A stretch of DNA of 64,000 nt from contig OZ024740.1 of NCBI GenBank assembly GCA_964016885.1, positions 376,712,001 through 376,776,000 of the forward strand, given 5' to 3'. The DNA is from Eledone cirrhosa (lineage: Eukaryota). Of the stretch, positions 5,261-60,971 are shown piece by piece. Both the position numbers and the translations under genes were made by a program. The stretch's first letter is position 1, and each line of letters begins with the position of its first letter. Below the pieces are notes generated by a model. That model did not search any database. It worked only from the letters and a program-made list of their open reading frames with translations, and was not told the origin of the DNA.

Positions 5261-5424
5261 ATTATATATATATATATATTATATATATATATATATATAC
5301 TATATATATATATTATATACTATGTATATACTATATATATACTATATATATACTATATATATATATTATATATATATATATATTATATATATATATACTC
5401 AGTTATATATATTATATATATATC

Positions 5425-6806
5425 TACTCAGTTTTGATGTGGTAAGCCTTTACACCAACATTACACATGATTTAGGAATAAAGGCGGTTAAATACTGGGT
5501 GGAAAAACATAGAGAAGTGATTCCCATTAGATTCACAGCGCCATTTATATTAGACGCAGTTAAACTTATTCTGGAAAACAACACTTTCTTCTTCAATGGA
5601 AAGAATTACATCTACATTAGAGGCACAGCGATGGGAACGAAGTTTACTCCCGTTTACGCGAACTCTGTAATGGGATACTTAGAACAACAACTCTACCAAG
5701 AAATAGAGGAAAAATATAGTACTGACTTTAGAAAGTACATTGAAAAATCTTGGAAGATATACCTTGACGACTGTTTCATCATCTGGACAGAATCTCTAGA
5801 TACTCTGGATGAGTTCAATATCCTCCTGAATAACCTACACCCATCTCTCCAATTCACAAAAGAGATGAGTAGGACCAAATTACCATTCCTAGATATAATG
5901 ATAATCAAAAACGACACCACCATTACCACGGATATATATTATAAACACACAGACACCCATCAATATCTGAATTTTAAGTCGTGCCATCCACCTCATACAA
6001 AACGCAACATCCTATACTGCCTAGCCAGAAGAATTTGTACCATTGTAGAAGATACGAATACCAGGTACAAACGCCTAACAGAACTAAGAGAATGTTTGCT
6101 CAAACAAAAATAACCATCTCTACTTATAGAAAATGGCATACAGCGGGCTATAAAAATACCTATACAACAACTTAGAACAACCCAAGGAAGAAGAAACCAA
6201 GAACTGGTCATACCATTTATAATGACACACAACCCATGTCACCAGAATATATTCAACACTGCCAAAGCAAACCTACCGATCATTGCTCAAAGTAATGAAT
6301 TAAAAGGCTTAATCACAGATCGATCTTTGACTCTTAGTAAAAGACAGCCAAAAAATTTGAAGCAATTGCTAACAAAAGCAAAGTTTGACCTTAACAACAA
6401 AGACCAATCATTCACTGTATCTAAATGCAATGATAATCGATGCGGCACATGTCAATCCATACACGCCGGTCAATATATGAAAACAAAAACTGGAAAAATA
6501 TTCCCAAATGCAAATATGAACTGCAAAAGCAGAAATCTAATTTACTGCATTAAATGCCCGAATTGTGAAGAACTATATGTCGGTCAAACTGGAAATGCCC
6601 TATCGGAACGTGCACGGGTACACCGTCAACAAATCAGAGACCCAAATGTCCGTCAGATACCCCTAAGCGGCCACCTGGCAACATGTGGTCAGGGAATATT
6701 TATAATATTCCCATTCTACAAATTACACAGCCCAAGTGAAATCAAGAGAAAAATCAAAGAAAAGAATTTTATTGATAAATTCAAACCCAAGCTAAATGAA
6801 CAATAA
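5425..6806 (+). pseudogene. PLE RT + GIY-YIG endonuclease ORF with one in-frame TAA (6111-6113)
   Basis: ORFs 5322..6113 and 6222..6806 share a frame and 6114-6221 is open; the N-terminal YI part of the listed ORF is only (TA)n. Confidence 0.88.
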
Positions 6807-7486: not shown

Positions 7487-10400
7487 AAATGGCGACCGTT
7501 GTGGTCAGTGTCCGATAATCGGACGTGTGTAATTACGGCTTACATGAAGGCAACATACCATATATTGGAAAAAGTTGAGCTACATTACGCGGTAAGATTA
7601 CATACAATAATTCTACATAAGTGTTTGAACTGTAAGTGTGTTGTAAAACACCTCTTTATATGAAAGATACATACACTTATGATATATGAACGGTACATAC
7701 ACTTTAACATATAAATGCAACGTTGTTATATTACATTTATAAAGAAATATACAAGTAACGTTTTCGATTCAGAAACAAAAATATAAGTGTTTGAACTGTG
7801 AATATGTTGTGAATAGGTTGTAGAACACCTATTTATATGAATGATACATAAACTTTAACATATAAATACAGCGTTGTTATATTATATTACATTCATAAAG
7901 GAATATACTAAGTAACGGTTCTTTTTGTTCTCGATTCAAACGATTCAAGAACAACGTTTAAAACACAGATGTAGAATTAAAAACTAACTGAAAAGAAATT
8001 TTACCCAAGCTGTGAATAACTTTAAATTTGATTATGACAGAACTTTGTCGTAACTTTTAAAGAAGATCATCGACTATTTTGAAAAATAAATACGAAATAT
8101 TAGTGAATAGACGAACTCATCATGGCAAAAAGTACAAACAATCTGAACCCCAAAAGTTCGGTTTTATGCAAAGGCTAAAAACTTTATGGAACTCCAAACA
8201 CCCAGAATTAGACTTTTCTCCAAAGCATCGAAATGAACAGACAAAACGTATCATTAGATGTAAATTGATACATCTAACGGAATTGAGTGATACTACAAAT
8301 ACAGCCCTTGTAGACAACCACCCACCTCCACTGACAGACAAAGAGAATGGCCAGCTAAATCTAACAGTGAACAGCTCACCAACAATTTTGCTGAAATCCA
8401 TCCCACTTCCACTGAAGAACAGCGAGAAAGGTCAGTGGACTCTAGTAGTAATTGTCACCACATCAACAACGAGGCTGAAATTCATGACTCTACTGAACAA
8501 ACAGACACCAAAAACTTGTGGGCACCCTACAAGTGATATGGAACGATATGTTTTAAGAGATACACAGCCTTAATGTGAGTGACAGACCATACAACACTAG
8601 AGTCAGTAAAGAACCCACTAAATTGGAATTGGAAGCGGTGAATGAAATAGCTGGCAATTATCTGAAGGCTATACGATTTAAAGGTGTAGAAACGACATTT
8701 GAAACGCTTAATGTTTTGTTATATGTTTCAGCTGTCACATGGCTATTATATAACACACATCTAAAACCAGGCAATCAAGATACAAACTGAAAGCCTGAAC
8801 CAGCGTGGATGCGAAATTTAAAAACCAAAATTTTGGCCCTGAGACGAAGTATCTCACACATCGCAGTCGTTATGAAATGCAACATAGAGAGCAACTTCAC
8901 ACGACACCAGGAAGACCTAAAGAAAAAGTTAGAGAGACGATTTGGAGATACAAAATTTTAAACTTTGAACTCCAAATTACACCAGTTGAAACAACAACTC
9001 ACAGCTACAACAGAAATACTAAAATATAAGTCAACAGCACATAAACGACAAGTGCTAAATAGATTGTTTGCCAGAGATCCTAAATCAGTTTATCGCAGCT
9101 TAGGTGGCAAAAGCTTAATCCCTGTAAACGACACCCCTTCAAAAGAACAGGTTGAGAGCTACTGGAGATATGTATGGGAAACGGATGACGGATTCAACAG
9201 ACAAGCTAATTGGCTAAGAGAACTGGAACAGGACTACTGCCATCATGTCCAGACAAAACAATATGACACGGATGGGTCAATACTGGAAACAGCTCTACAG
9301 AAAATATCGAATAGGAAATCGCCAGGCCCAGACCTCATTACAGGATACTGGTTGAAGAATTTCACTTACTATCGGCAAGATCTCATACGGCTGTTTACAG
9401 AAACCATTAAGGGCACACAAGAACTGCCCAGCTGGTTATCAACTGCCACTATTCTCCTCATTCCCAAAAATAGCCAAACCACCCTTGCTAAAAATTACCG
9501 CCCAATTGCCTGCCAAAACATCATGTATAAATTATATACTGGGTGCCTTAACCTGTTCTTACAGGATCACTGTGCTACCAACACCATCATAACACCTGAG
9601 CAAGCTGGTGGAAAGAGGGAGGTGTGGGGTTGCATAGATCACCTACTAACTAACAAAATGATTCAGGAAAAAACAACAAAGAATCGCAGAAACATGACTG
9701 TCGTGTGGATGGACTATCAAAAAGCATTTGATAGTGTACCTCATGGGTGGATTATTAAGGCTTTACAGTTATCTAAAGTCCCACAACCATTGGTAGCTGT
9801 TGTTGAACGCCTGACTAAGAACTGGTACACCAATTTGATCCTTAGAGGTGAGAAGGAGCAGGTTAAGACTGATAAGATAGATTACCAGAAGGGCATCTTT
9901 CAGGGTGATAGTTTGTCAGTGCTACTCTTCGTTCTCTCACTGAATCCACTATCTTACCTACTCAGGAAACAAGGTGGACAAAGAAGTGGGCCCAGAAGTA
10001 TCTCCGATCTTTTCTTTGTTGATGACCTGAAGTTGTATGGGCCAAATATCAATGACATCAAGAAACAATTGGACCTCATTACACAATTTTCAACCGACAT
10101 CAAAATGAAATTTGCTGAGTCCAAGTGTGCATATTTGGCAGTAAAACGTGGAAGAGCTGTGCCCTCCTCTAGAAATCTAGAGATGAACGGCCTGACAATA
10201 CAACCTCTGCAGTCAGGTGACAACTACAGATATCTTGGACAGGATGAGAATGTCAGATATGATGGACCCATAAATAAGGAGAGAACCAGAACTGAATACC
10301 TCAGAAGAGTAAAGAAAATATGGTCATCAGAACTGTCAGCATACAACAAATACATTGCCCAGAATACTTATGCTGTGCCAATTCTAACGCCAACATTTGG

Positions 10401-11630
10401 CCTACTGAACTGGTCATTGCAAGAACTAAGTGAGATGGATGTTAGAACTCGAAAACTTCTCAGTGTTACTGGCAACTTTAACATCAATGGTGATGTGGAT
10501 AGGCTATACTTCTCACGCAAGGAAGGTGGCCGGGGTCTAAAATCAATATTAACAACGTATGAGACCCGGATGGTAACACTGAAGCAACACCTTCAACAGA
10601 GGAAAAAGGTTGGCAACCACCTTGCCCAGGTTTATGAGCATGAAAAAAGAAATATCATTAGAATAGCGACTGATCTGGAGGAGAGATATGGAATAAAGCC
10701 TGATATAAATCTCTCCCCCAGAGAAATCGGAAGATCCTATTCAATGTTCAAACAAGATTAAAAAATTGACCAATTTACAGAAAAAGTTGTGCATGGATAC
10801 TTGAGGCGTAAAACACAGACCATAGAGGGGATAAACCACTCAAAAAGCCTGGCATGGAGTTCCGACAAGTTTATGACATCACACCTTGAGGGATATCTCT
10901 ATGCAATACAGGAACAAGAACTCCCTACCAAATATCTGCTGCACAACAGAGGAGGGCCAGCAGCTGACAATAAATGTAGGCTATGTAAAACAAAGATCGA
11001 GGATGTAAGCCACATTGTTGCCAGCTGCGAAAGAATGTCATCTCGCTACTATCTCCCCATGAGACACGATGGGATAGCTAGAACCATCTGGAACGCACTT
11101 CGGAAAACAAAATTAACAACAAACGAGGAAGAATATATTGAGACAGATGACACTAAGGAATACTGGTGGAACCTGAAAATAAAAACTGCCACCAAATTAA
11201 AGCACAACCGGCCTGATATTGTTGTTTGGGACCACACATTGAAAACGTGTTCTGTTGTGCAGATCAGCTGTCCACTTCATGTAAACGTTGTCAGAAAAAT
11301 ACAGAAGAAGGAGGACATCTACGGACCATTGATGAGGAGTTTACAAATCCAGTATCCAAGATACACCTTTAGCTTCATACCCATCATTATTGGTGCTACG
11401 GGTTATATACCAACCCGCTTGGACCAAAGTATGACTGAACTTGGATTTGCGGACAAAGAGCGCAGCTCCCTAATTCATAGTCTACAAATGGCTGCGATAG
11501 CTGGCACCTTCAAAATTTGCAAAACATTCTTGCGATTCAAGGGATGACAATTTCTTTTCTGTTACAACCTTGCCACCAGGAAGGTGGCCGGTCAAAAAAT
11601 ATACTCGAAATTAAGAGAAAGAGAAAACAT
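7487..11630 (+). mobile_element. Near full-length R4/Dong-like non-LTR retrotransposon flanked by (TACA)n
   Basis: RT (NYRPIAC, DYQKAFDSVPH, GIFQGDSLS, FVDD, YLG), CCHC knuckle CRLC..HIVASC, REL endonuclease RHD..NRPDIVV..ISCP; ACAT repeats on both flanks. Confidence 0.93.
8079..11547 (+). pseudogene. R4/Dong RT-REL polyprotein, disrupted by frameshifts and stops
   Basis: ORFs 8079..8573, 8575..8790, 8965..10761 (598 aa RT) and 10789..11547 (252 aa knuckle plus endonuclease) are collinear. Confidence 0.88.
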
Positions 11631-11692
11631 ACATGATGATGACTGTTCCCTCGTTATCGAGTATGGCCATTGCACGAGAAGAAGAAAAAAAA

Positions 11693-11758
<66 letters not shown>

Positions 11759-12823
11759 AAAATAAAATTAAAATTTAAAAAAAAATAAATATATATATAT
11801 ATATATATATACATATACATACACATATACACACACACACACTCACACACATATACACACACATACATTAATAACAATAATAATAATAATAATCATAACA
11901 ACAATAATAATAACGACAACAATAATAATATACATATACATATATATATACACACACACGCACACACATAAGCATATCTACACACACACACACACGATAG
12001 TAACTAACAGCGCTGCGATCGAACGTGGCATTTTAGCCCAGCCAATGATCTAAAATGTCTTGCACAGAGTCGGCAACCAAAACATTCACTGGGAATAGTC
12101 GGCTGTGGTTGGAGTTCGTGTACTTTTGCATGTCGCTTGAGCCCGCCTGCTGATTTACATTCTCTACCACATGTTTGGCAAGCATGATGAGTAGCATCTC
12201 CAACAGCAGCCTGGTAGTCAACCACTGGTCTTACTTTATGACTGCGAAGATGACTTTCGAGTCCAGCTTTGCTTAGGCAGAGTCTCGCACACACGCTGCA
12301 TGCCAGCACCATAGGAGGACCCTCGCCGTCTGGAAGTGCAACAGCAATGCCCTTCCTCCCATCCCGCTTTACTTTCTCGTATGCGATTCGAGATGCCTCA
12401 AAGGCAACTTTTCCCTCATATACAGTCTTTCTCCATTTATTACGATCAGCAGCAATATTCTCCCATGTATCAGCAGAGATGTTAGCGTCTTTCAGAGAGG
12501 CTTTCAAGGAATCCTTATACCTCTTTTTTGGTTTATGTGGCGGTCGTTTTCCTTTAACCAACTCTCCATAAAAGAGTTGTTTTGGTATTCTAGAATTCTT
12601 CATCCTGGCAAGGTGACCACTCCAACGGAGTCATTGCTTAAGCACAAGAGCTTCTATACTGTCACACATAGAGCTTTCCAAAATCTCGACATCACTGATG
12701 TGGTCCCTCCAGTGAACGCCATGGATCCGTCTGAGACACATCTGATGGAAACGCTCCAATTGCTTAAGGTGGTGTCGATATGTGACCCAGGTCTCGCAGG
12801 CATAAAGAAGACAAGAGAGCACA
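11630..12823 (-). mobile_element. 5'-truncated RTE-clade LINE with C-terminal C2H2 fingers
   Basis: LLYACETW..LERFHQMCLRRI..LRWSGH..RIPKQLFYGEL..RYKDSLK; one in-frame TGA at 12631-12633; microsatellite-rich 3' UTR; terminal stem-loop and ATGT tail. Confidence 0.92.
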
Positions 12824-12825
12824 AA

Positions 12826-12945
12826 TACATACATACATACATACATACATACATACATACATACATACATACATACATACATTCATACATACATACATGA
12901 TGGCTGCCCCCTCGTCATCGAGTATGGCCATTGCAGGATATAACA
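12826..12945 (-). repeat. (TACA)n tract followed by an isolated RTE 3'-terminal stem-loop
   Basis: ATGATGGCTGCCCCCTCGTCATCGAGTATGGCCATTGCAGGA matches 11635-11678 and 57129-57170. Confidence 0.8.
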
Positions 12946-13016
12946 ATAGTAATAATTTTCAACTAATTCTATCGTGTATATGAGGGTGTGCGTGTACGTC
13001 TGTGAAAGAGTATATG

Positions 13017-20187: not shown

Positions 20188-20316
20188 AACAATGAAATAA
20201 AAACAAAGAACAGGTTCCTTATATTGAAAGATTGATCATTTTACGATCGTTTATAGGATATATATGTGTGTATATATGTGTGTATATATATATATATACA
20301 TATATATATACACACA

Positions 20317-20766
20317 GGGCAAAGGAGCTCTTAAGAGTCAATGGCCATCCAAAATCACCGGGAGAGATGACCTATTAGCCTTTGTTAAGGCAGAATTCAA
20401 GGAGAAGGAAAAATCTGATATAACACCTGCAACTTTGATGGTATCCAATGATGTTGAATTGTTCTTCTTTTTGGTAAATATCATTTTGGTTAAGAGAGTG
20501 GGACTGGCTTTGTGCAGTGCCTTTGCTCACTATAAAAGCTTCACGGCACAGGCATTGCTTTATATCTGGAGATCTCTCTGCACTTGTCGTCACATGATAC
20601 CATGGGCTCAGCACTATGTGTCAATAATTGTCAAGAGTGTAGTGTTTGTACCAGAGTTTTCAAGTCGCTGGCTGGACTAAAAAGTCACACTCGTTCAGCG
20701 CATCGGTAGGGTTTCTCCTACATGGATATAAAGTAGTGGCCGTACTCGAAAACGAGTTGGCAGCCA

Positions 20767-20770
<4 letters not shown>
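20317..20770 (+). mobile_element. RTE-derived family B element, 5'-truncated, inside (TA)n
   Basis: Close match to the reverse complement of 2209-2662. Confidence 0.85.
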
Positions 20771-20804
<34 letters not shown>

Positions 20805-21609
20805 GAGGGTGCATGTGTATGTGTATGTTTGTTTGACAGTGTGTCTAGGAGAAGGATTATTCTGATTTCAAAGCCCAGATAGATAGGACTCCTTAGTTAC
20901 AGAAGCGATAATGTTTCAAGTGGCCAACGGTTTCATACTTGTGGAGAAGGTGGATGAGCTGAGGCTCGGTGGCCTGCTTCCAAGTAATGAACGTCACATT
21001 TTCCCCGATGAGAGTTATGGACAAATAGAGTGTCCATGGCTTCCAACCATCTATAAAAAGGATGGAAAGACATGTGACCACAAACAAGTCCTAATGGTTA
21101 AGGCCCATGATTGTAGAATAATGTGTTTGATCAACAGACCAGGAATCGCATTGAGTTTTCTCACGTATATACAGTTCACAGCTGGAAATATGAGTTGCAA
21201 CGACACTTGCGCCATGATGTGTCGAAGAAAGGATAGGAAAAATATTTTGTGAAAAAAAAGTTGTGTACTGAATACATGTCATTTCTCTCAAAATACTTTT
21301 TCCATTCATTCCTTTTCTCACTCTCTATCTTTTTATTTCATTTTTTATTTTTCATTCTATCTTCTAACGGAGGAGTAGCGTCTGCAACATAAATACTTTT
21401 TTTCCTACTATATCAAGCGTGTTCGGTATTTTCCTGCATCACAAACGTAATAGAGGTTATAAACACGTCTGTACATAGACAGAAAAAACTCACGACTGAA
21501 TCAATCGATCATCTTGAAACAAGTATGTACTTGCCTGCTAAGCTCATAACCAATATGCCTATATACATCGTCGACGTTCTGACTCTCCGTGTTGTACATA
21601 GGAGAATCA

Positions 21610-23866: not shown

Positions 23867-24011
23867 CCAAATAAATATTCTTAAAAAGACTCCAGTTGCA
23901 TTTTCGATTTCATCTTTTTCTCTTATACTTTCACTCGTGTAGGGCATCTCGTTTTTTTTTTCATTTTGTAAAAACAAAACTCATTTTCTAATATACATAT
24001 ACATATATATA

Positions 24012-24221
24012 GGAATATGTTCAAGACCCTGATGGCAGAGCTCAAGCCGTTTCGACGGCTATTTCTGGACGGCTATTTTAGTCCAAAAATAGCCGTCGAA
24101 ACGGTTTGAGCTCTGCCGTCGGGGTCTTGAACATGTTTCTATTACCCACTATACTACCCTAAGTATTCAGGACTCTGGTGCGTTATGGCCCTTCTGGTTC
24201 CTTACCACACTTCTTTCGTTA
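24012..24221. repeat. Short dispersed repeat with ~60-bp inverted arm
   Basis: 24012-24070 is the reverse complement of 24081-24140; related copies at about 31828-31905, 45215-45368 and 47110-47190. Confidence 0.7.
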
Positions 24222-41652: not shown

Positions 41653-41659
41653 AATAATA

Positions 41660-41892
41660 ATAATAATACAAGGACGATTTGTTAAGCCTTCATTACGGTT
41701 GTTGATTGATGACGCGCGTTTCTCTATTGATCAGCTCAACGTTCGATCTGTATCGATCTGGCCCGACTCTGGAAGCAAAAGCTCGTCGGGCCTGATCGAT
41801 ACAGATCGAACCTTGAGCTGATCAATATCGAAACGCGCGTCACCAATCAATAAACGTAATGAAGGCTTAACAAATCGTCCTTGTATTATTAT
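41660..41892. repeat. ~105-bp-arm palindrome from a PLE pseudo-LTR
   Basis: Arms about 41660-41767 and 41785-41892; contains the hammerhead 3' half CGAAA-CGCGCG-TC followed by AATAAA. Confidence 0.75.
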
Positions 41893-41990
41893 ATTACACT
41901 CTGTCTAGCTCTACATCTCACTACTAACGTGAACCTAAACATCGAGTGCTCACCTGGTTGAACCTGCAGTACCTTCACGTTACATTCCCT

Positions 41991-45164: not shown

Positions 45165-45391
45165 ATATATACATATAATAATAAATATATATATACATAT
45201 TTATATATATATATAACGAAGGAAATGTGGTAAGGAACCAGGTGGACCATAACGCACCAAAGTACTCAATACTTGGGGTAGTAGAGTGGGTAATAGGAAC
45301 CAGTAAGACCCCGTCCAGAATTAGCCGTCGAAACGGCTTGAGCTCAGCCGTCGGTGTCTTACTGGTTACTATATATATATATATATATATA

Positions 45392-45617
45392 TAGTGTAAA
45401 CAAAGTTTCATGCACTTAACATGGATATGCTACCAATAGTTTTGGGGTACAGTCGTGGCCACCACTGTATAATGGAAGAGGCCATTCATACAGGCAAGTT
45501 CCTAGATAAAGGGCCAGTTTGAAAGTGCCTCCTCAACTATACAGTGGTGGCCATGACTGGACCCCGTAACCATTGGTAGCACGTACATGTTAAGTGTATG
45601 AAACTTTGTTTACACTA
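45392..45617. mobile_element. MITE-like element, ~80-bp imperfect terminal inverted repeats, TA flanks
   Basis: TAGTGTAAACAAAGTTTCAT...ATGAAACTTTGTTTACACTA. Confidence 0.75.
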
Positions 45618-45684
45618 TATATACTCTCTTTCAGTAGATTGAGCACTGTTTTCCTTGATCTTTCATCTACAGATTTCTCACAAA

Positions 45685-45902: not shown

Positions 45903-45911
45903 ATATATATA

Positions 45912-46126
45912 TAATGTATAATAAACAATACAATATAATTACCTCATTACCAGAGGTTTCCCGAGTAAAACGAATACAAGAAACGTCCGCATTCGTTCGT
46001 CAGACAAGGCAATTTAAAACATAAATTGCCTTGTCTGACGAACGAATGCGGACGTTTCTTGCATTCGTCTTATTCGGGAAACCTATGGTAATGAGGTAAT
46101 TATATTGTAGTGTTTATTATACATTA
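45912..46126. repeat. ~105-bp-arm palindrome with a hammerhead motif in each arm
   Basis: Centre at about 46018; + motif 46029-46096, - motif 45942-46009. Confidence 0.85.
46029..46096 (+). ncRNA. Type I hammerhead-like motif
   Basis: CCTTGT-CTGACGA-aCGAATG..TATTCGg-GAAA-CCTATGG-TA-ATGAGG; first stem II pair is A.G. Confidence 0.6.
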
Positions 46127-46195
46127 AATGTAGTTCTGTAACTTAGGTAGATCACTCTTCACTCCTATGACTTTTTCAATTTTCAACGGAAACTT

Positions 46196-46413: not shown

Positions 46414-46903
46414 CATTCTCAGCTAAGATACCTGGCGATGGGTGGACACAGGAAACTTATATAAAAATATATTCAGTGGATGGAAGAGAGCAAGCAGGGA
46501 CTAAATTCCAGTACACTGAAAAAATTACTGCCTTCTTGTTCGGTGGCAAATTCAAAAGACATCGAGGTTAATCAGTGAGGAGTGGGGTGTAAAACGACAG
46601 TAGCCAAGCTGTCACTATGAACTATAGTAGTAATTTTTGGCAAATTTTTGCTTAACCAAATAATTTGGAGATAATTATTAAGAAATAGTATATCTACCAA
46701 GATATATATACAGATGTATACCTATGCAAGCAAATATATTGGTTTTATCTTAGTAAGCTAATTACTATAATTAGTAAGTAAGCTAATTACTATAATTTTC
46801 TTATTTTACGTTTTTCATATAATTGTTCTGCATCCCCAAAATTACTAAGACAAAACCTACATATTTGCTTGCATCTGTGTATATATGTTGGTAGATATAC
46901 TAA

Positions 46904-46961
<58 letters not shown>

Positions 46962-54215: not shown

Positions 54216-55988
54216 TTACATATATATATATACATATATGTGTGTGTGCGTGTCAAGACCGAAGGGCCCGTACAAGCAACGCATGCAGTGCATGCGTTAT
54301 CGAATCTTGAATTTATCAATTGCGTCGGTTGAAGCAGCAGAATTTTGGCTGCTTACTAAAACGTATAGACACAAAAAAAGAAAACACACACACACATACA
54401 CCCAAACACACGACAGCTTTGTGGCAAGCAGAATTTTGACAGCTTACTAATTCGTAGACACATAAAAAGATAACACACACACACACACACACTGGATAAC
54501 ACTACATGCGGAGGGTTATTTAGAGGGAATTGGGGGGGGGGGGCACAGCCCCACTTTCCCCCATGGCGATTGGACTGCATGCCCTGCTTTCCAGGTTACC
54601 CATCGCCACTGGTGCGTGTGTGTGTGTGTGTGTTTGTTTGTGTGTATACACGAGGGCAGAGATTATATATACGCATACACACACATATTATATATACACG
54701 TATATGCGCGTGTATATATGAATAATTCATTACATTCGAGCGTTATGACTCTGGAATTTCATGTAAAACACCAAATATTTGCTTAGGTGTAGACAGATGT
54801 GGATATGAAGCATGTATTCTTAAAATAATATTGTCTTATAAAGGGCTCTGTCAAATAAATTCTTGTAAACTATTATTGATTTGATACAACACTATGAAAA
54901 TCTTCTGTGGAAACTATAAGTTGTTACTAAAAGCACATCGATATATAATGACCCAATGATATTATTCAATAGAAAATATGCAAATAAAACATTATATGAA
55001 ATAAGAAGTGTATGCACAAGTGAATGAAAGTTAGAAAATAAATCATTATGAGGTAACATATTATGAGATGAATAAAAAATAAAAGAGATATAGAAAATGT
55101 ATATGTTTGGAGATGTACAAGTTTGGATATATTCGAAAGACATTATATTTGCTGACCTGTAGAAACAAATGAAAATAAGAGTTAAATAACATTATCTCTT
55201 GCATGTTTTTCATATCACAAATATGCAGACTAAATGTTTTTATTTAGAGCAATTTGGTAGGTAATCTGATAAAAACAAAACAGGCGGATATCTTAAAATA
55301 ATACATTTACAGGGTTGACTAAGGTCAATAATATGTTTGAAAAGCAAGAGATGTGAAAATAAATGGCCTGTAATATGAATTGGAATATAAATTATTATAC
55401 GCTGGTATTAACGTGGACAAAATATAGATATAAAAACGGGAGAGTAGAGATAAATTCTAGGGAATTGTGGAGCAAATTTGTACATTTGTACATAGATGTA
55501 CAAGATTGTATAGCTTGGAATAGTTATTGTCTTGCAATATATATATGTGTGTAAGTTTTTACGTGTGTGTGTGTGATTGTATGTGTGTGTCTAATTGTGT
55601 GTGAGTGTGTATGTGTGTGTGTGTGTTGTATATATGTGTGTGTGTATGTGTGTGCGTGCGTGTGTGCATAGTGTATGAGTGGGTGTCTATGAGAGTGTAA
55701 GTGTGTGTGTGTGCAATCGAACATAAACGTAACCAACGAATCAAATGAAAGAGTACAATAAAAAAAATATATTAGTTTCATGCTTGATATAGTCTTTACA
55801 TTAGTCCTTCATCAGAAGATAGAATGAGGAATAAAAAATGAAATAGAGAGATAGAGGGTGGAACGGAAAAAGATTTTTTTAGAAAGAACACGTGTATTCA
55901 GTAAGCCATACATACATACGTACGTACATACATACATACATGCATACATACATACATACATACATACATACATACATACATACATACA

Positions 55989-56421
55989 TACATACATACA
56001 TACATACATGGTGGCTGCCAACTCGTTTTCGAGTATGGCCACTACTTTATATCCATGTAGGAGAACCCCTACCGATGCGCTGAACGAGTGTGACTTTTTA
56101 GTCCAGCCAGCGACTTGAAAACTCTGGTACAAACACTACACTTGCGACAATTATTGACACATAGTGCTGGGCCCATGGTACCATGTGACGACAAGGGCAG
56201 AGAGATCTCCAGATATAAAGCAATGCCTGTGCCGTGAAGCTTTTATAGTGAGCAAAGGCACTGCACAAAGCCAGTCCCACTCTCTTAACCAAGATGATAT
56301 TTACCAAAAAGAAGAACAAGTCAACATCATTGGATACCAACAGGGTTGCAGGTGTTATATCAGAGTTTTCCTTCTCCTAGAATTCTGTCTTGACAAAGGC
56401 TAACGGGTCATCTCTCTCGGA
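55989..56421 (-). mobile_element. RTE-derived family B element, 5'-truncated, within (TACA)n
   Basis: Close match to 2209-2622. Confidence 0.88.
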
Positions 56422-56496
56422 GATACATACATACATACATACATACATACATACATACATACATACATACATACATACATACATACATACATACAT

Positions 56497-57095: not shown

Positions 57096-57128
57096 CACAT
57101 ACACACATACACATACATACATACATAC

Positions 57129-58200
57129 ATGATGGCTGCCTCCTCGTTATCGAGTATGGCCATTGCAGGAGAGAAAAAAACATAATAATAACAATAATAA
57201 TAATAATAACAACAATAATAATGACAACAGCAACAACAATAATAATATACATATATATATATACACACACGCGTACACACATAAACATATCTACACACAC
57301 ACACACACACGATAGCAATTAACAGCGCTGCGATCGAATGTGGCTTTTTAGCCCAGCTAATGATCTAAAATGTCTTGCAGAGAGTTGGCAACCAAAACAG
57401 TCACTGGGAATAGCCGGCTGTGGTTGGAGTTCGTGTACTTTTGCATGCCGCTTGAGCCCTCCTGCTGATTTACATTCTCTCCCACATGTTTGGCAAGCAT
57501 GACGAGCAGCATCTCCAACAGCAGCCCGGTAGTCAACCACTGGTCTTACCCCATGACTGCGAAGATGACTTTCAAGTCCAGCTTTCTTAGGCAGAGTCTC
57601 GCACAGACGCCGCATGCCAGCGCCATAGGAGGACCCTCGCCGTCTTGAAATGCAACAGCAACGCCCTTGCTCGCATCCCGCCTTACCTTCTCGTATGCGA
57701 TTCGAGATGCCTCAAAGGCACCTTTCCCCTCATATACAGTCTTTCTCTATTTATTACGATCAGCAGCAACATTTTCCTATGTATCAGCAGATATGTTAGC
57801 GTCTCCCAAAAAGGCTCTCAACGAATCCTTATACCTCTTTCTTGGTCTCTGTGGCGGTCGTTTTCCCCCAAACCACTCTCCATAAAAGAGCCGCCCCGGT
57901 ATTTTGGAGGGCTCTCAGTGTGACAGTGTGGAGGCTCTTGTGCTTGGGCGACGACTCCGTTGGAGTGGTCGTCTTGCCGGGATGAGGGATTCTGGAATAC
58001 CGGGGCGGCTCTTTTATGGAGAGTTGGTTGGGGGAAAACGACCGCCACATAGACCAAGAAAGAGGTATAAGGATTCCTTGAGAGCATCTTTGGGAGACGC
58101 TAACATATCTGCTGATACATGGAAAAATGTTGCTGCTGATCGTAATACATGGAGAAAGACTGTATATGAGGGGAAAGGTGCCTTTGAGGCATCTCGAATC
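57129..58200. mobile_element. RTE-ZnF LINE copy with 5' inversion-duplication and heavy A-to-G change
   Basis: 57129-57903 on minus matches 11635-12589; 57901-58200 on plus matches the sense strand of 12684-12385. Confidence 0.92.
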
Positions 58201-58280
58201 ACATACATACATACATACATACATACATACATACATACATACATACATACATACATACATACATACATACATACATACAT

Positions 58281-60725
58281 AAATCAATTTATGACTGATG
58301 ACACCCCAACAAAAGAACAGGTTGAGAGCTAATGGAGATCTATATGGGAAACGATTGATGCCATTTAACAAAACAACTAAATGGATATAATAAATGAAAC
58401 AGGAATACTGCCAGCATGTCCAGACAAAACAATAGGACATAGATAGGTCAATACTGGAAACAGCTATACAGAAAATCACCTATAGGAAATCAGCAGGGCA
58501 AGACCTCATAATAGGAAACTGGCTGAAGAATTTCACCTTCTGAGGAATTTCACACGGCTGTTATCAACTGCCACTACTCGCCTCTTCCCTAAAACGAGCC
58601 AAACCACCCTCGCTAAAAATTACCGCCCAATAGCATGCCAGAACATAATGTATACATTATACACTGGGTGCCTTAATCTTTTTTACAGGATCATTGTGCC
58701 ACCAACAACATTTTAACACCCGAGCAAGTTGGTGGAAAGAAGGAGGTGTGGGGCTGCATAGATCACCCACTAACAAATAAAATGATTCACGAAAAAACAG
58801 CAAAGAATCACAGGAACATGACTGTGGTGTAGTTGGACTATCAGAAGGCCTTTGATAGTGTACCTCATGGGTGGATTATTAAGGCTTTACAGTTAGCCAA
58901 AGTCCCACAACCACTAGTAGCTGCTGTTGAACGCCTGACCAAGAATTGGTACACCAATTTGATCATTAGGGGTGAGAAGGAGCAAATTAAGACTGGTACA
59001 ATACACTACCAGAAAGGCATCTTTCAGGGTTATGACTTATCAGTGCTGCTCTTCGTCCTCTCACTAAACCCACTATCATACCTGCTCACGAAACAAAGTA
59101 GTCATAGAAATGGGTCCAGAAGTATCTCCCATCTTTTCTTTGTTGATGACCTGAAGGTCCAAATACCAACTATATCAAAAATCAATTGGACCTCATTACA
59201 CAATTCTCTGCAGATATCAGAAGGAAATTTGTTTAGTCCAAATGTGCATATTTGATAGTAAAACATGGAAGGGCTGTGCCTTCCTCTGGAAATCTAGAGA
59301 TGAACGGCTTGCCAATACAACCTCTACAATCAGGAGACAACTACAGATATCCTGGACAGGATGAGAATGTCAGATATGATTGACTCATAAATAAGGAGAG
59401 AACCAGAACTGAATGTATCAGGAGAGTAAAGAAAATAGTGCCATCAGAACTATCAGTTTACAACAAATACATTGCCCACAATACTTATGCTATGTTAATC
59501 CTAACGCCAATATTTGGTCTGCTGAACTAGTCATTGCAAGAACTAAGTGAGATGGATGTAAGAAGTCGCAAGCTTCTCAGTTTTACTGGAAAATTTAACA
59601 TCAATGTTGATGTGGATAGGCTATACTTCTCACGCAAGGAAGGTGGCCGGGGTCTAAAATCCATATTAATATCATACGAGACCCGCGCAGTAGCACTGAA
59701 GCAACATATTCAACAGAAGAAAATGGTCAGCAACCATCTTGCCGAAGTTTATGAGCATGAAGGAAATAATATCATTAGGATAGCCACTGATCTGGAGGAG
59801 AGATATGGAATAAGGCCAGGGAAATTGGAAAATCCTATTCAATGTTCAAACAAGATAAAAAGAAAAATGGACCAGTTTACAGAGAACGTTATGTATGGGT
59901 ACGTGAGACGAAAGCCACAAACCATAGAGGGAATAAATCATTCAAAAAGACTGGCATGGAGTTTCGACAAGTTTATGACATGCCACCTTGAAGGATATCT
60001 CTATGTAATACAGGAACAAGAAATCCCAATCAAATATCTTCTACACAAAAGAGGAGGACAATCAGTCGACAATAAATGTAGGCTTTATAAAACAAAGATT
60101 GAAGATGCTAGCCACATTGTTGCCAACTGCGAAAGAATGTCATCTCGTTACTACCTCCCTATGAGACACGATGTGATAGCTAGAACCATCTGGAGCGCAC
60201 TTAGGAAAACAAAATTAAAAACAAATGAGGAGGAACATGTTGAGATAGATGCAGTGAAGAATACTGGTGGAACCTGAAAATAGAAACTGCCTCCAAATTA
60301 AAGCACAACCGGCCTGATGTTGTTTGGAACCAACCATTGAAAACGTGCTCTGTTGTAGAGATCAGCTGCCCACTTGATGTCAACTGTGTATGAAATATAC
60401 AAGAGAAGGAGGGTATCTACGGACCATTTATGAGGAGTGTATAGATCCAATATCTATGATACACCTTCAGCTTCATACCCATCATTACTGGGGCTGCAGG
60501 TTATATACCAACCCGCTTGGACCTAAGTATAGCTGAAATTGGATTTGTGGACAAAGAGCGCAGCTCCCTAATTCATAGACTACAAATGGGTGCGATAGCT
60601 GGAACCTTCAAACTTTGCAAAGCATTCTTGCGATTCAAGGGTTCACAATTTCTTTTCTTTTACAACCTTGCCGCCAGGAAGGAGGTCGCTCAAAAATGTA
60701 CTCGAAATTAAGAGAGAGAGAAACA
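58281..60725 (+). mobile_element. 5'-truncated, degraded copy of the R4/Dong family at 7.5-11.6 kb
   Basis: Collinear with about 9080-11628; many stops; ACAT repeats on both flanks. Confidence 0.93.
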
Positions 60726-60971
60726 TACATACGTACATATAGGGATATGGGACAGCATTAACAGCGAAAGGAAAGTGCGCACGCCCATATATTCAAAGAG
60801 GCAAAACAGTAATATTTACATGTCATTGTTTGGCATCATGAATACTATCAATTTTATTCGTTTAACTCAGACTTTATTCTTCTAGCTTTCAATATATCCA
60901 TTAATCTATCTATTTACTTGTATATTCTTCTGTTTGCTTATATATCCTACTACTTATATCGATACATACAT

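Follow-up and report, generated by a model that had tools for sequence, protein, structure and literature searches.

The DNA considered here, referred to as the window, is a 64,000-nt stretch of the Eledone cirrhosa genome (contig OZ024740.1, positions 376,712,001 to 376,776,000). Between 57129 and 58200 it contains a retrotransposon insert made up of two arms in opposite orientation, with (CATA)n repeats on both flanks (Table 1). The insert belongs to a LINE family with an intact copy, L217, which has one ORF of 1,182 aa giving Exo_endo_phos, RVT_1, and weak C2H2 hits, a 5' UTR without a long ORF (and with nothing above threshold in Rfam), and a tail of (ATGT)n. LINEs of the RTE clade lack ORF1, encode AP endonuclease and RT in a single ORF, and end in a short tandem repeat. 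On its ORF, domain, and tail features, which are the basis of the label here rather than a tree, the family would be an RTE-type LINE. The Octopus element RTE-2_OV, described as showing signs of recent activity (PMC9115989), is similar in having a single ORF of about 1,100–1,200 aa (endonuclease, RT, zinc fingers) and UTRs of about 600 nt, a likeness judged from the description of that element. The available text on it describes no editing of the element. At its 5' end, the sister copy in the window runs up against another such element (12863–12956), meeting its 3' terminus and (ATGT)n tail, so elements of this kind insert into each other's microsatellite tails.

Table 1. Features of the insert, its flanks, and the sister copy, in window coordinates.
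Feature	Position	Strand	Basis
(CATA)n microsatellite target, 3' side	57097–57131	+	Sequence; merges with the element's (ATGT)n tail
LINE 3' UTR and terminus, microsatellite-rich, ending ...GGCAGCCATCATGT	57129–57318	-	Matches sister 11627–11764 and 11871 onward
Left arm: 3' part of the ORF (RT end, C2H2 fingers), putative first cDNA from the 3' end; one frameshift	57319–57903	-	Domains from intact copy L217
3-nt microhomology ATT at the inversion junction	57901–57903		Contig from run X1 spans it without difference
Right arm: inverted 5' segment, likely the second, internally primed cDNA	57901–58200	+	Alignment to sisters
Inverted duplication: ~208 nt in both arms, ~95-nt spacer	57693–58206		Identical A>G sites
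(CATA)n target, 5' side	58202–58282	+	Sequence
Unedited sister copy used in the preliminary description	11627–12826	-	99% to other genomic copies

Read in the sense of the element, a (CATA)n flank is followed by the inverted segment, which meets at the junction the forward segment running to the 3' tail, and a second (CATA)n flank closes the insert. No target-site duplication is readable, because the (CATA)n target merges with the (ATGT)n tail. The left arm (57903 down to 57129 on the minus strand) matches the sister through to the 3' end, and the terminus of its 3' UTR is the same as that of the full-length copy L217. On the other side, the CATAC at 58202–58206 matches the element as well as the target and is the expected internal priming site. 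A twin-priming layout was found, with an inverted 5' segment, complementarity to the target at CATAC, and ATT microhomology at the junction, and we infer that the insert is a 5'-truncated inversion of twin-priming type with an internal duplication. Simple fold-back of the first cDNA was also considered and is ruled out by the spacer, which is in sense on the first-cDNA strand. In L1, twin priming is described as internal priming by spurious complementarity, with both cDNAs made from one RNA (bioRxiv 10.1101/2024.08.27.596794). Inverted 5' segments, microhomology at the junction, and breakpoint duplications (in 17% of L1 inversions) are reported there as well, but the median duplication is 22 bp vs. 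about 208 nt here. The present case also differs from the L1 ones in that the element is of RTE type, the target is a microsatellite, and the edits would act as a barcode of the template.

The preliminary description had noted, from a hand alignment of the right arm with the sister copy (57901–58200 on the plus strand against 12684–12385 in sense), that most differences are A-to-G and occur in runs. Its counts proved exact, at 29 A>G and 2 G>A with 9 differences of other kinds in 300 gap-free columns, and the quoted runs were reproduced, as was the change in the encoded protein from GHLARM..RIPKQLFYGEL to GRLAGM..GIPGRLFYGEL; the right arm and the sister differ at 22 amino acids in 99 codons. 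One of the 29 A>G differences is the sister's own mutation, two are sub-lineage polymorphisms, and one is common to L207, leaving 25 that are private. L207 is the nearest-lineage copy, carrying the diagnostic alleles of the focal copy and two of its Gs, which were probably inherited. When the majority base in each column of 84 sister copies is the reference instead, 28 of the 38 differences in the right arm are A>G and none is T>C, and in the left arm, over 560 nt, 23 of 44 are A>G. When the Gs common to L207 and the sub-lineage polymorphisms are taken out first, 36 of the 190 As in the two arms are privately G vs. one of 156 Ts to C (polarised by sisters; Fisher p = 2e-9). In the densest 195 nt, 25 of 64 As (39%) are G, and the changes are clustered (17 pairs within 5 nt vs. 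9.8, p = 0.003). Sense G>A, by which APOBEC action would be recognised, is not the pattern of this copy (4 G>A vs. 38 A>G), and across the LINE family G>A and C>T are symmetric.

It could be asked whether this is an artefact or ordinary divergence, arising from assembly error, from descent within a G-rich subfamily, or from G>A decay of the sister. The family has A at the sites in question, so the focal Gs are derived; neither a G majority at these sites nor a G-rich subfamily was found among the sisters. A search pattern requiring two of the focal Gs matched 2 places, while a permissive version of it matched at least 1,576 copies, and the closest non-self match to the right arm is 89% identical, with the reservation that the candidates scored were the best 40 of 930. 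On these results and the A majority, a G-rich subfamily and decay of the sister were rejected. As to the assembly, run X1 yielded one contig over 57781–58118 (338 nt, depth 6.4), which has no differences from it and covers the inversion junction and 26 of the 28 right-arm Gs. Runs X2 and X3, from the same sample, have zero depth over 57872–58033, and the RAD run X4 has none over the element core, so that the presence of the Gs in genomic reads is backed by one contig from one of three same-sample runs. The contig is support against assembly error; the sample is likely from the same individual as the assembly. With the pattern also symmetric in the two arms, an artefactual or ordinary origin is barely credible.

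The arms lie on opposite genomic strands and show the same sense change, as expected if the substitutions follow the sense strand of the element, and the proposal that they are older than the duplication was upheld by identical A>G sites in the ~208-nt stretch present in both. Within a 198-nt BLAST overlap of the arms, 10 of 10 A>G changes are common, and a GGGGCGG run adds six more. Other changes are private to one arm or the other (4 and 7), with at most one new non-A>G change in both. With at most one such common change vs. 11 private ones, the duplication would date from at or near insertion, and the Gs found in both arms would therefore have been in a common template. It is likely that they were present in one RNA before it was copied, and less likely that a prompt duplication at the DNA level gave rise to both arms. 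A different history has been considered, in which the ADAR edits are real but the inversion arose later, by template switching at the DNA level, or gene conversion made the arms alike, so that the sites in common would not be two readings of one RNA. A 208-nt duplication is unusually long for twin priming, there are other local inverted repeats in the window, and one C/G site differs between the arms, with L207 agreeing with the left one. Later inversion would, however, call for switching twice and for losing the 5' part. The 5' joint lies on the CATAC match to the target, and the junction on a 3-nt microhomology. Almost no new change other than A>G is common to the arms, and 5' inversions were also seen in three other sampled copies of the family (L062, L220, L228). 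Such a history thus seems unlikely.

Among 5' neighbours of the edited base, the order of preference of ADAR is U > A > C > G. The preliminary description had remarked that A after G is mostly spared, and in the focal copy such As changed in 2 of 52 cases vs. 34 of 138 for other As (p = 7e-4); a 3' G preference is not significant in this copy taken alone. There are five further independent, heavily changed copies. Five patterns forcing one or two Gs returned 33 rows, corresponding to 25 distinct loci, and the heavy set consists of the focal copy, L032, L094, L095, L099, and L058, each with 20–40 A>G and 0–2 T>C after removal of lineage alleles. The sub-lineage alleles of the focal copy, L032, and L094 differ from each other and from the rest. 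A>G changes cluster significantly within 5 nt in five of the six. For the 203 pooled events, the frequencies by 5' neighbour are A 98/746, U 49/416, C 39/659, and G 17/744 (p = 1e-15), and by 3' neighbour G 85/678, A 63/767, C 30/498, and U 25/622 (p = 1e-7), a result unchanged when distinct sites are counted. According to Eggington et al. (PMC3113232), the 5' neighbour is the most influential for ADAR, and ADAR2 prefers a 3' G. The pooled context, with 5' G avoided and 3' G favoured, is ADAR-like.

A pattern forcing one G found eight copies, six of them with further non-lineage Gs inside the 23-mer, while the mirror T>C pattern found five, none with a second C or a T>C cluster. Fourteen sites are common to the focal copy and L032, a number inflated by the use of the focal sequence to find L032. 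In samples taken in position order, heavy copies numbered 0 of 60 among older copies and 1 of 92 in a marker-defined subfamily (the latter including two copies already in the set), with one older copy, L104, ambiguous (28:6 among 141 differences); heavy copies are estimated at about 0.3–1% of the family. None of the heavy copies was seen to have given rise to others. One of them, L094, also carries a deletion and a short repeat in its interior (~1418–2644), which may record further template jumps.

The one-strand character of the changes also bears on deamination of DNA during or after integration, whether by an adenine deaminase on single-stranded DNA or by ADAR working on the DNA side of an RNA:DNA hybrid. 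ADARs are reported to deaminate dA in hybrids in vitro (PMC12925331), but deamination of the first-strand cDNA would appear as sense T>C, the opposite of the data, and only an enzyme specific for the second strand remains; this origin is considered very improbable. Editing of the hairpin transcript of the locus itself was rejected as well, since one arm would then show A>G and the other T>C, which is unseen.

A lighter bias of the same kind is found in the youngest sub-lineage. A two-marker pattern matched 710 places, of which 90 were taken in position order; 74 had at least three of the four diagnostic alleles, and the other 16 were left out. Among the singletons in these 74 copies (177 kb of ORF), sense A>G is the leading mutation, with 47 vs. 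8 T>C (p = 2e-7); the others are 17 G>A, 11 C>T, and 35 transversions. By orientation of the insertion, A>G:T>C is 20:8 on the plus strand and 27:0 on the minus. Among variants shared between young copies, 41 of 50 are A>G when polarised by the older majority. At the 44 shared A/G sites, a 5' G is disfavoured (3/302, p = 2e-4) and a 3' G preferred (22/266); the singletons alone have no significant 5' G depletion (11/47, p = 0.34) and show the 3' G preference only. The variable sites of the young copies were also compared with the heavy copies of other sub-lineages, with 24 in common vs. 19.7 expected from triplet context, no significant excess (p = 0.14).

On a tree of 59 young copies, 124 of 158 steps are A/G, although the tree is a weak one, having been built from the same few sites. 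Some sites take one to three steps and travel together, as inherited changes would, and others take five to nine and are unlinked even at short range, where the four-gamete test is failed by 14 of 23 pairs less than 150 nt apart. This agrees better with source RNA being edited again at the same positions than with recombination. The young A>G changes would then be partly recurrent and partly inherited. Most of the frequent ones are silent or of the types K>R, I>V, R>G, and S>G, and in this sub-lineage 21 of the 25 full-length ORFs are open. Light editing is likely to be present in most new insertions and to be passed on at times by new source copies.

No such asymmetry was found in the singletons of 60 older copies (A>G:T>C 161:132, p = 0.24); all variants of these copies together, which are not independent, give 295:183. 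The singletons of a second, older LINE family (30 copies) likewise lack significant asymmetry, at 167:101 (p = 0.38). The related SINE described below has 21 A>G vs. 3 T>C over all variants, and only 5:3 among singletons. As a DNA-transposon control, a small, young Tc1/mariner family (L370–L380; 11 copies about 99% alike, with a 350-aa ORF and terminal inverted repeats of ~185 bp) gave 7 A>G and 5 T>C.

These data allow a comparison with polymerase error at retrotransposition, through misplacement of dG opposite template dT in the second strand or skewed dNTP pools, with no deaminase involved. Such error predicts a sense-strand bias acquired at insertion time, and slippage could favour a 3' G, which is all that the young singletons show. 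It would have to account, however, for change at 39% of As with one T>C in 195 nt, for the same sites in two separately synthesised arms, for avoidance of 5' G both in the heavy copies and at the shared young sites, and for single young sites altered on up to nine branches of the tree. As a general explanation it is therefore distinctly improbable; as the source of the light signal in young copies only, it is a real candidate, if one with the odds against it. For the focal copy, it is very likely, judging from the sequence patterns, that the A>G changes were made by ADAR acting on LINE RNA and were then fixed by reverse transcription.

The host has what appears to be an intact ADAR2 gene, one exon of which matches Octopus vulgaris ADAR2 at 95% identity and retains the catalytic motifs CHAE, PCGDA, and SCSDK, as fits an octopod host. 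The LINE RNA would be double-stranded transiently over a few hundred bases. Structure within the LINE RNA was tried as the substrate and rejected, since the LINE contains no long inverted repeat and the edited As are not associated with its predicted local fold. With no long inverted repeat of its own in the element, the partner has to be sought outside it, and would probably be either antisense RNA or a neighbouring inverted copy within a read-through transcript; the copies found, at least 1,576 and 710 with the two patterns and on both strands, are candidate sources of antisense RNA. ADAR would deaminate the sense RNA in a cell of the germline or early embryo, and the element's RT would likely read inosine as G in the course of target-primed reverse transcription. 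Priming by the (CATA)n target would occur both at the tail and, internally, at CAUAC, leading to one RNA molecule being copied twice over 208 nt.

The closest parallels are in retroviruses. ADAR-type A>G hypermutation is described for Rous-associated virus, avian leukosis virus, and HTLV-2/STLV-3 (PMC12925331), with clustered A>G at up to about half of As attributed to reverse transcription of ADAR-edited RNA, as proposed here. Those cases concern exogenous viruses in somatic or cultured cells and are tied to an inverted repeat, whereas the present element is a non-LTR one fixed in the assembly, its RNA has no inverted repeat, and there are several independent copies and a lineage-wide bias. 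According to the same source, ADAR1 suppresses L1, apparently without editing. APOBEC G>A footprints fixed in vertebrate LTR elements (Knisbacher and Levanon, PMC4866542; Zaranek et al., PMC2873906) are likewise strand-biased deaminase marks, polarised by the family majority and absent from DNA transposons, but they are G>A from C-to-U on cDNA and are reported absent from 19 invertebrate genomes; here the change would be A>G at the RNA stage, in an invertebrate LINE. In coleoids, RNA derived from repeats is described as undergoing widespread non-neural A-to-I editing, suggested to be a transposon defence that is called unexplored (Albertin et al., PMC9068888). The measurements given there are of RNA only, and its available text describes no write-back to DNA. 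No report of ADAR-edited non-LTR copies fixed in an animal genome was found in the literature, with the proviso that the supplements of PMC4866542 may bear on it; none are described in the available portions of PMC5974252, PMC7186786, and PMC3880073. A 2016 review calls a role of ADAR in Alu subfamily evolution or mutational suppression undetermined (PMC4982230). The present locus contributes the twice-copied control and the lineage-wide A>G bias.

The preliminary description had proposed both a heritable record of editing and a possible route of transposon restriction. The first is supported by the derived, one-strand, context-biased A>G changes. The second found no backing, in that heavy copies did insert, A>G creates no new stop codons, and lighter A>G has been inherited with ORFs open; restriction is unproven, since the edited RNAs seen are those that inserted and failed RNAs leave no trace. 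Insertion of the heavy copies and inheritance of A>G in open ORFs read more like mutational input than a block. A joint reading, favoured here with modest confidence, is that ADAR is the main mutator of this currently active octopus LINE. Most new insertions would carry at least one edit, and some sites in the source RNA would be edited repeatedly, so that the frequency of G among daughters (~10–40%) would preserve, like a fossil, the level of editing in the germline. Certain edits would become founder alleles of new sub-lineages, mostly through conservative amino-acid replacements (K>R or I>V, for instance) that leave the ORF open, and rare hyperedited molecules like that behind the focal copy would lie at the extreme of this process.

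As a rule, A-to-I editing leaves only a passing mark on RNA, and copies such as these would carry it into heritable DNA through retrotransposition. They would also show ADAR meeting LINE RNA in the germline, and if the joint reading is true, RNA editing steers LINE evolution and does not just block it. The family supplies exact sites and expected editing levels for comparison with gonad RNA. Marks on the template can be told apart from polymerase errors by means of the twice-copied stretch, which acts as an internal control.

Several other elements in the window were noted. A young SINE-like element of ~450 nt is present in three copies (55958–56424, 20313–20835, and 2159–2666), all sitting in (CATA)n; it shares a 150-nt stretch with the LINE 5' UTR (74%) and also the LINE 3' terminus (92%), and would thus be a bipartite, LINE-derived SINE. 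There are five further inverted repeats with short spacers, at 24009–24142, 41655–41896, 45386–45623, 45906–46132, and 46676–46912, which show no clear editing pattern; the first has 6 G.T vs. 1 A.C arm mismatches, and the other four are balanced. A second LINE, which we take to be R4/Dong-like, has RT and a C-terminal restriction-like endonuclease motif and is represented by decayed copies at 58300–60730 and 9130–11634 that are 84% alike. Finally, reading frames on the plus strand at 5400–6806 resemble RT and GIY-YIG, a combination typical of a Penelope-like element.
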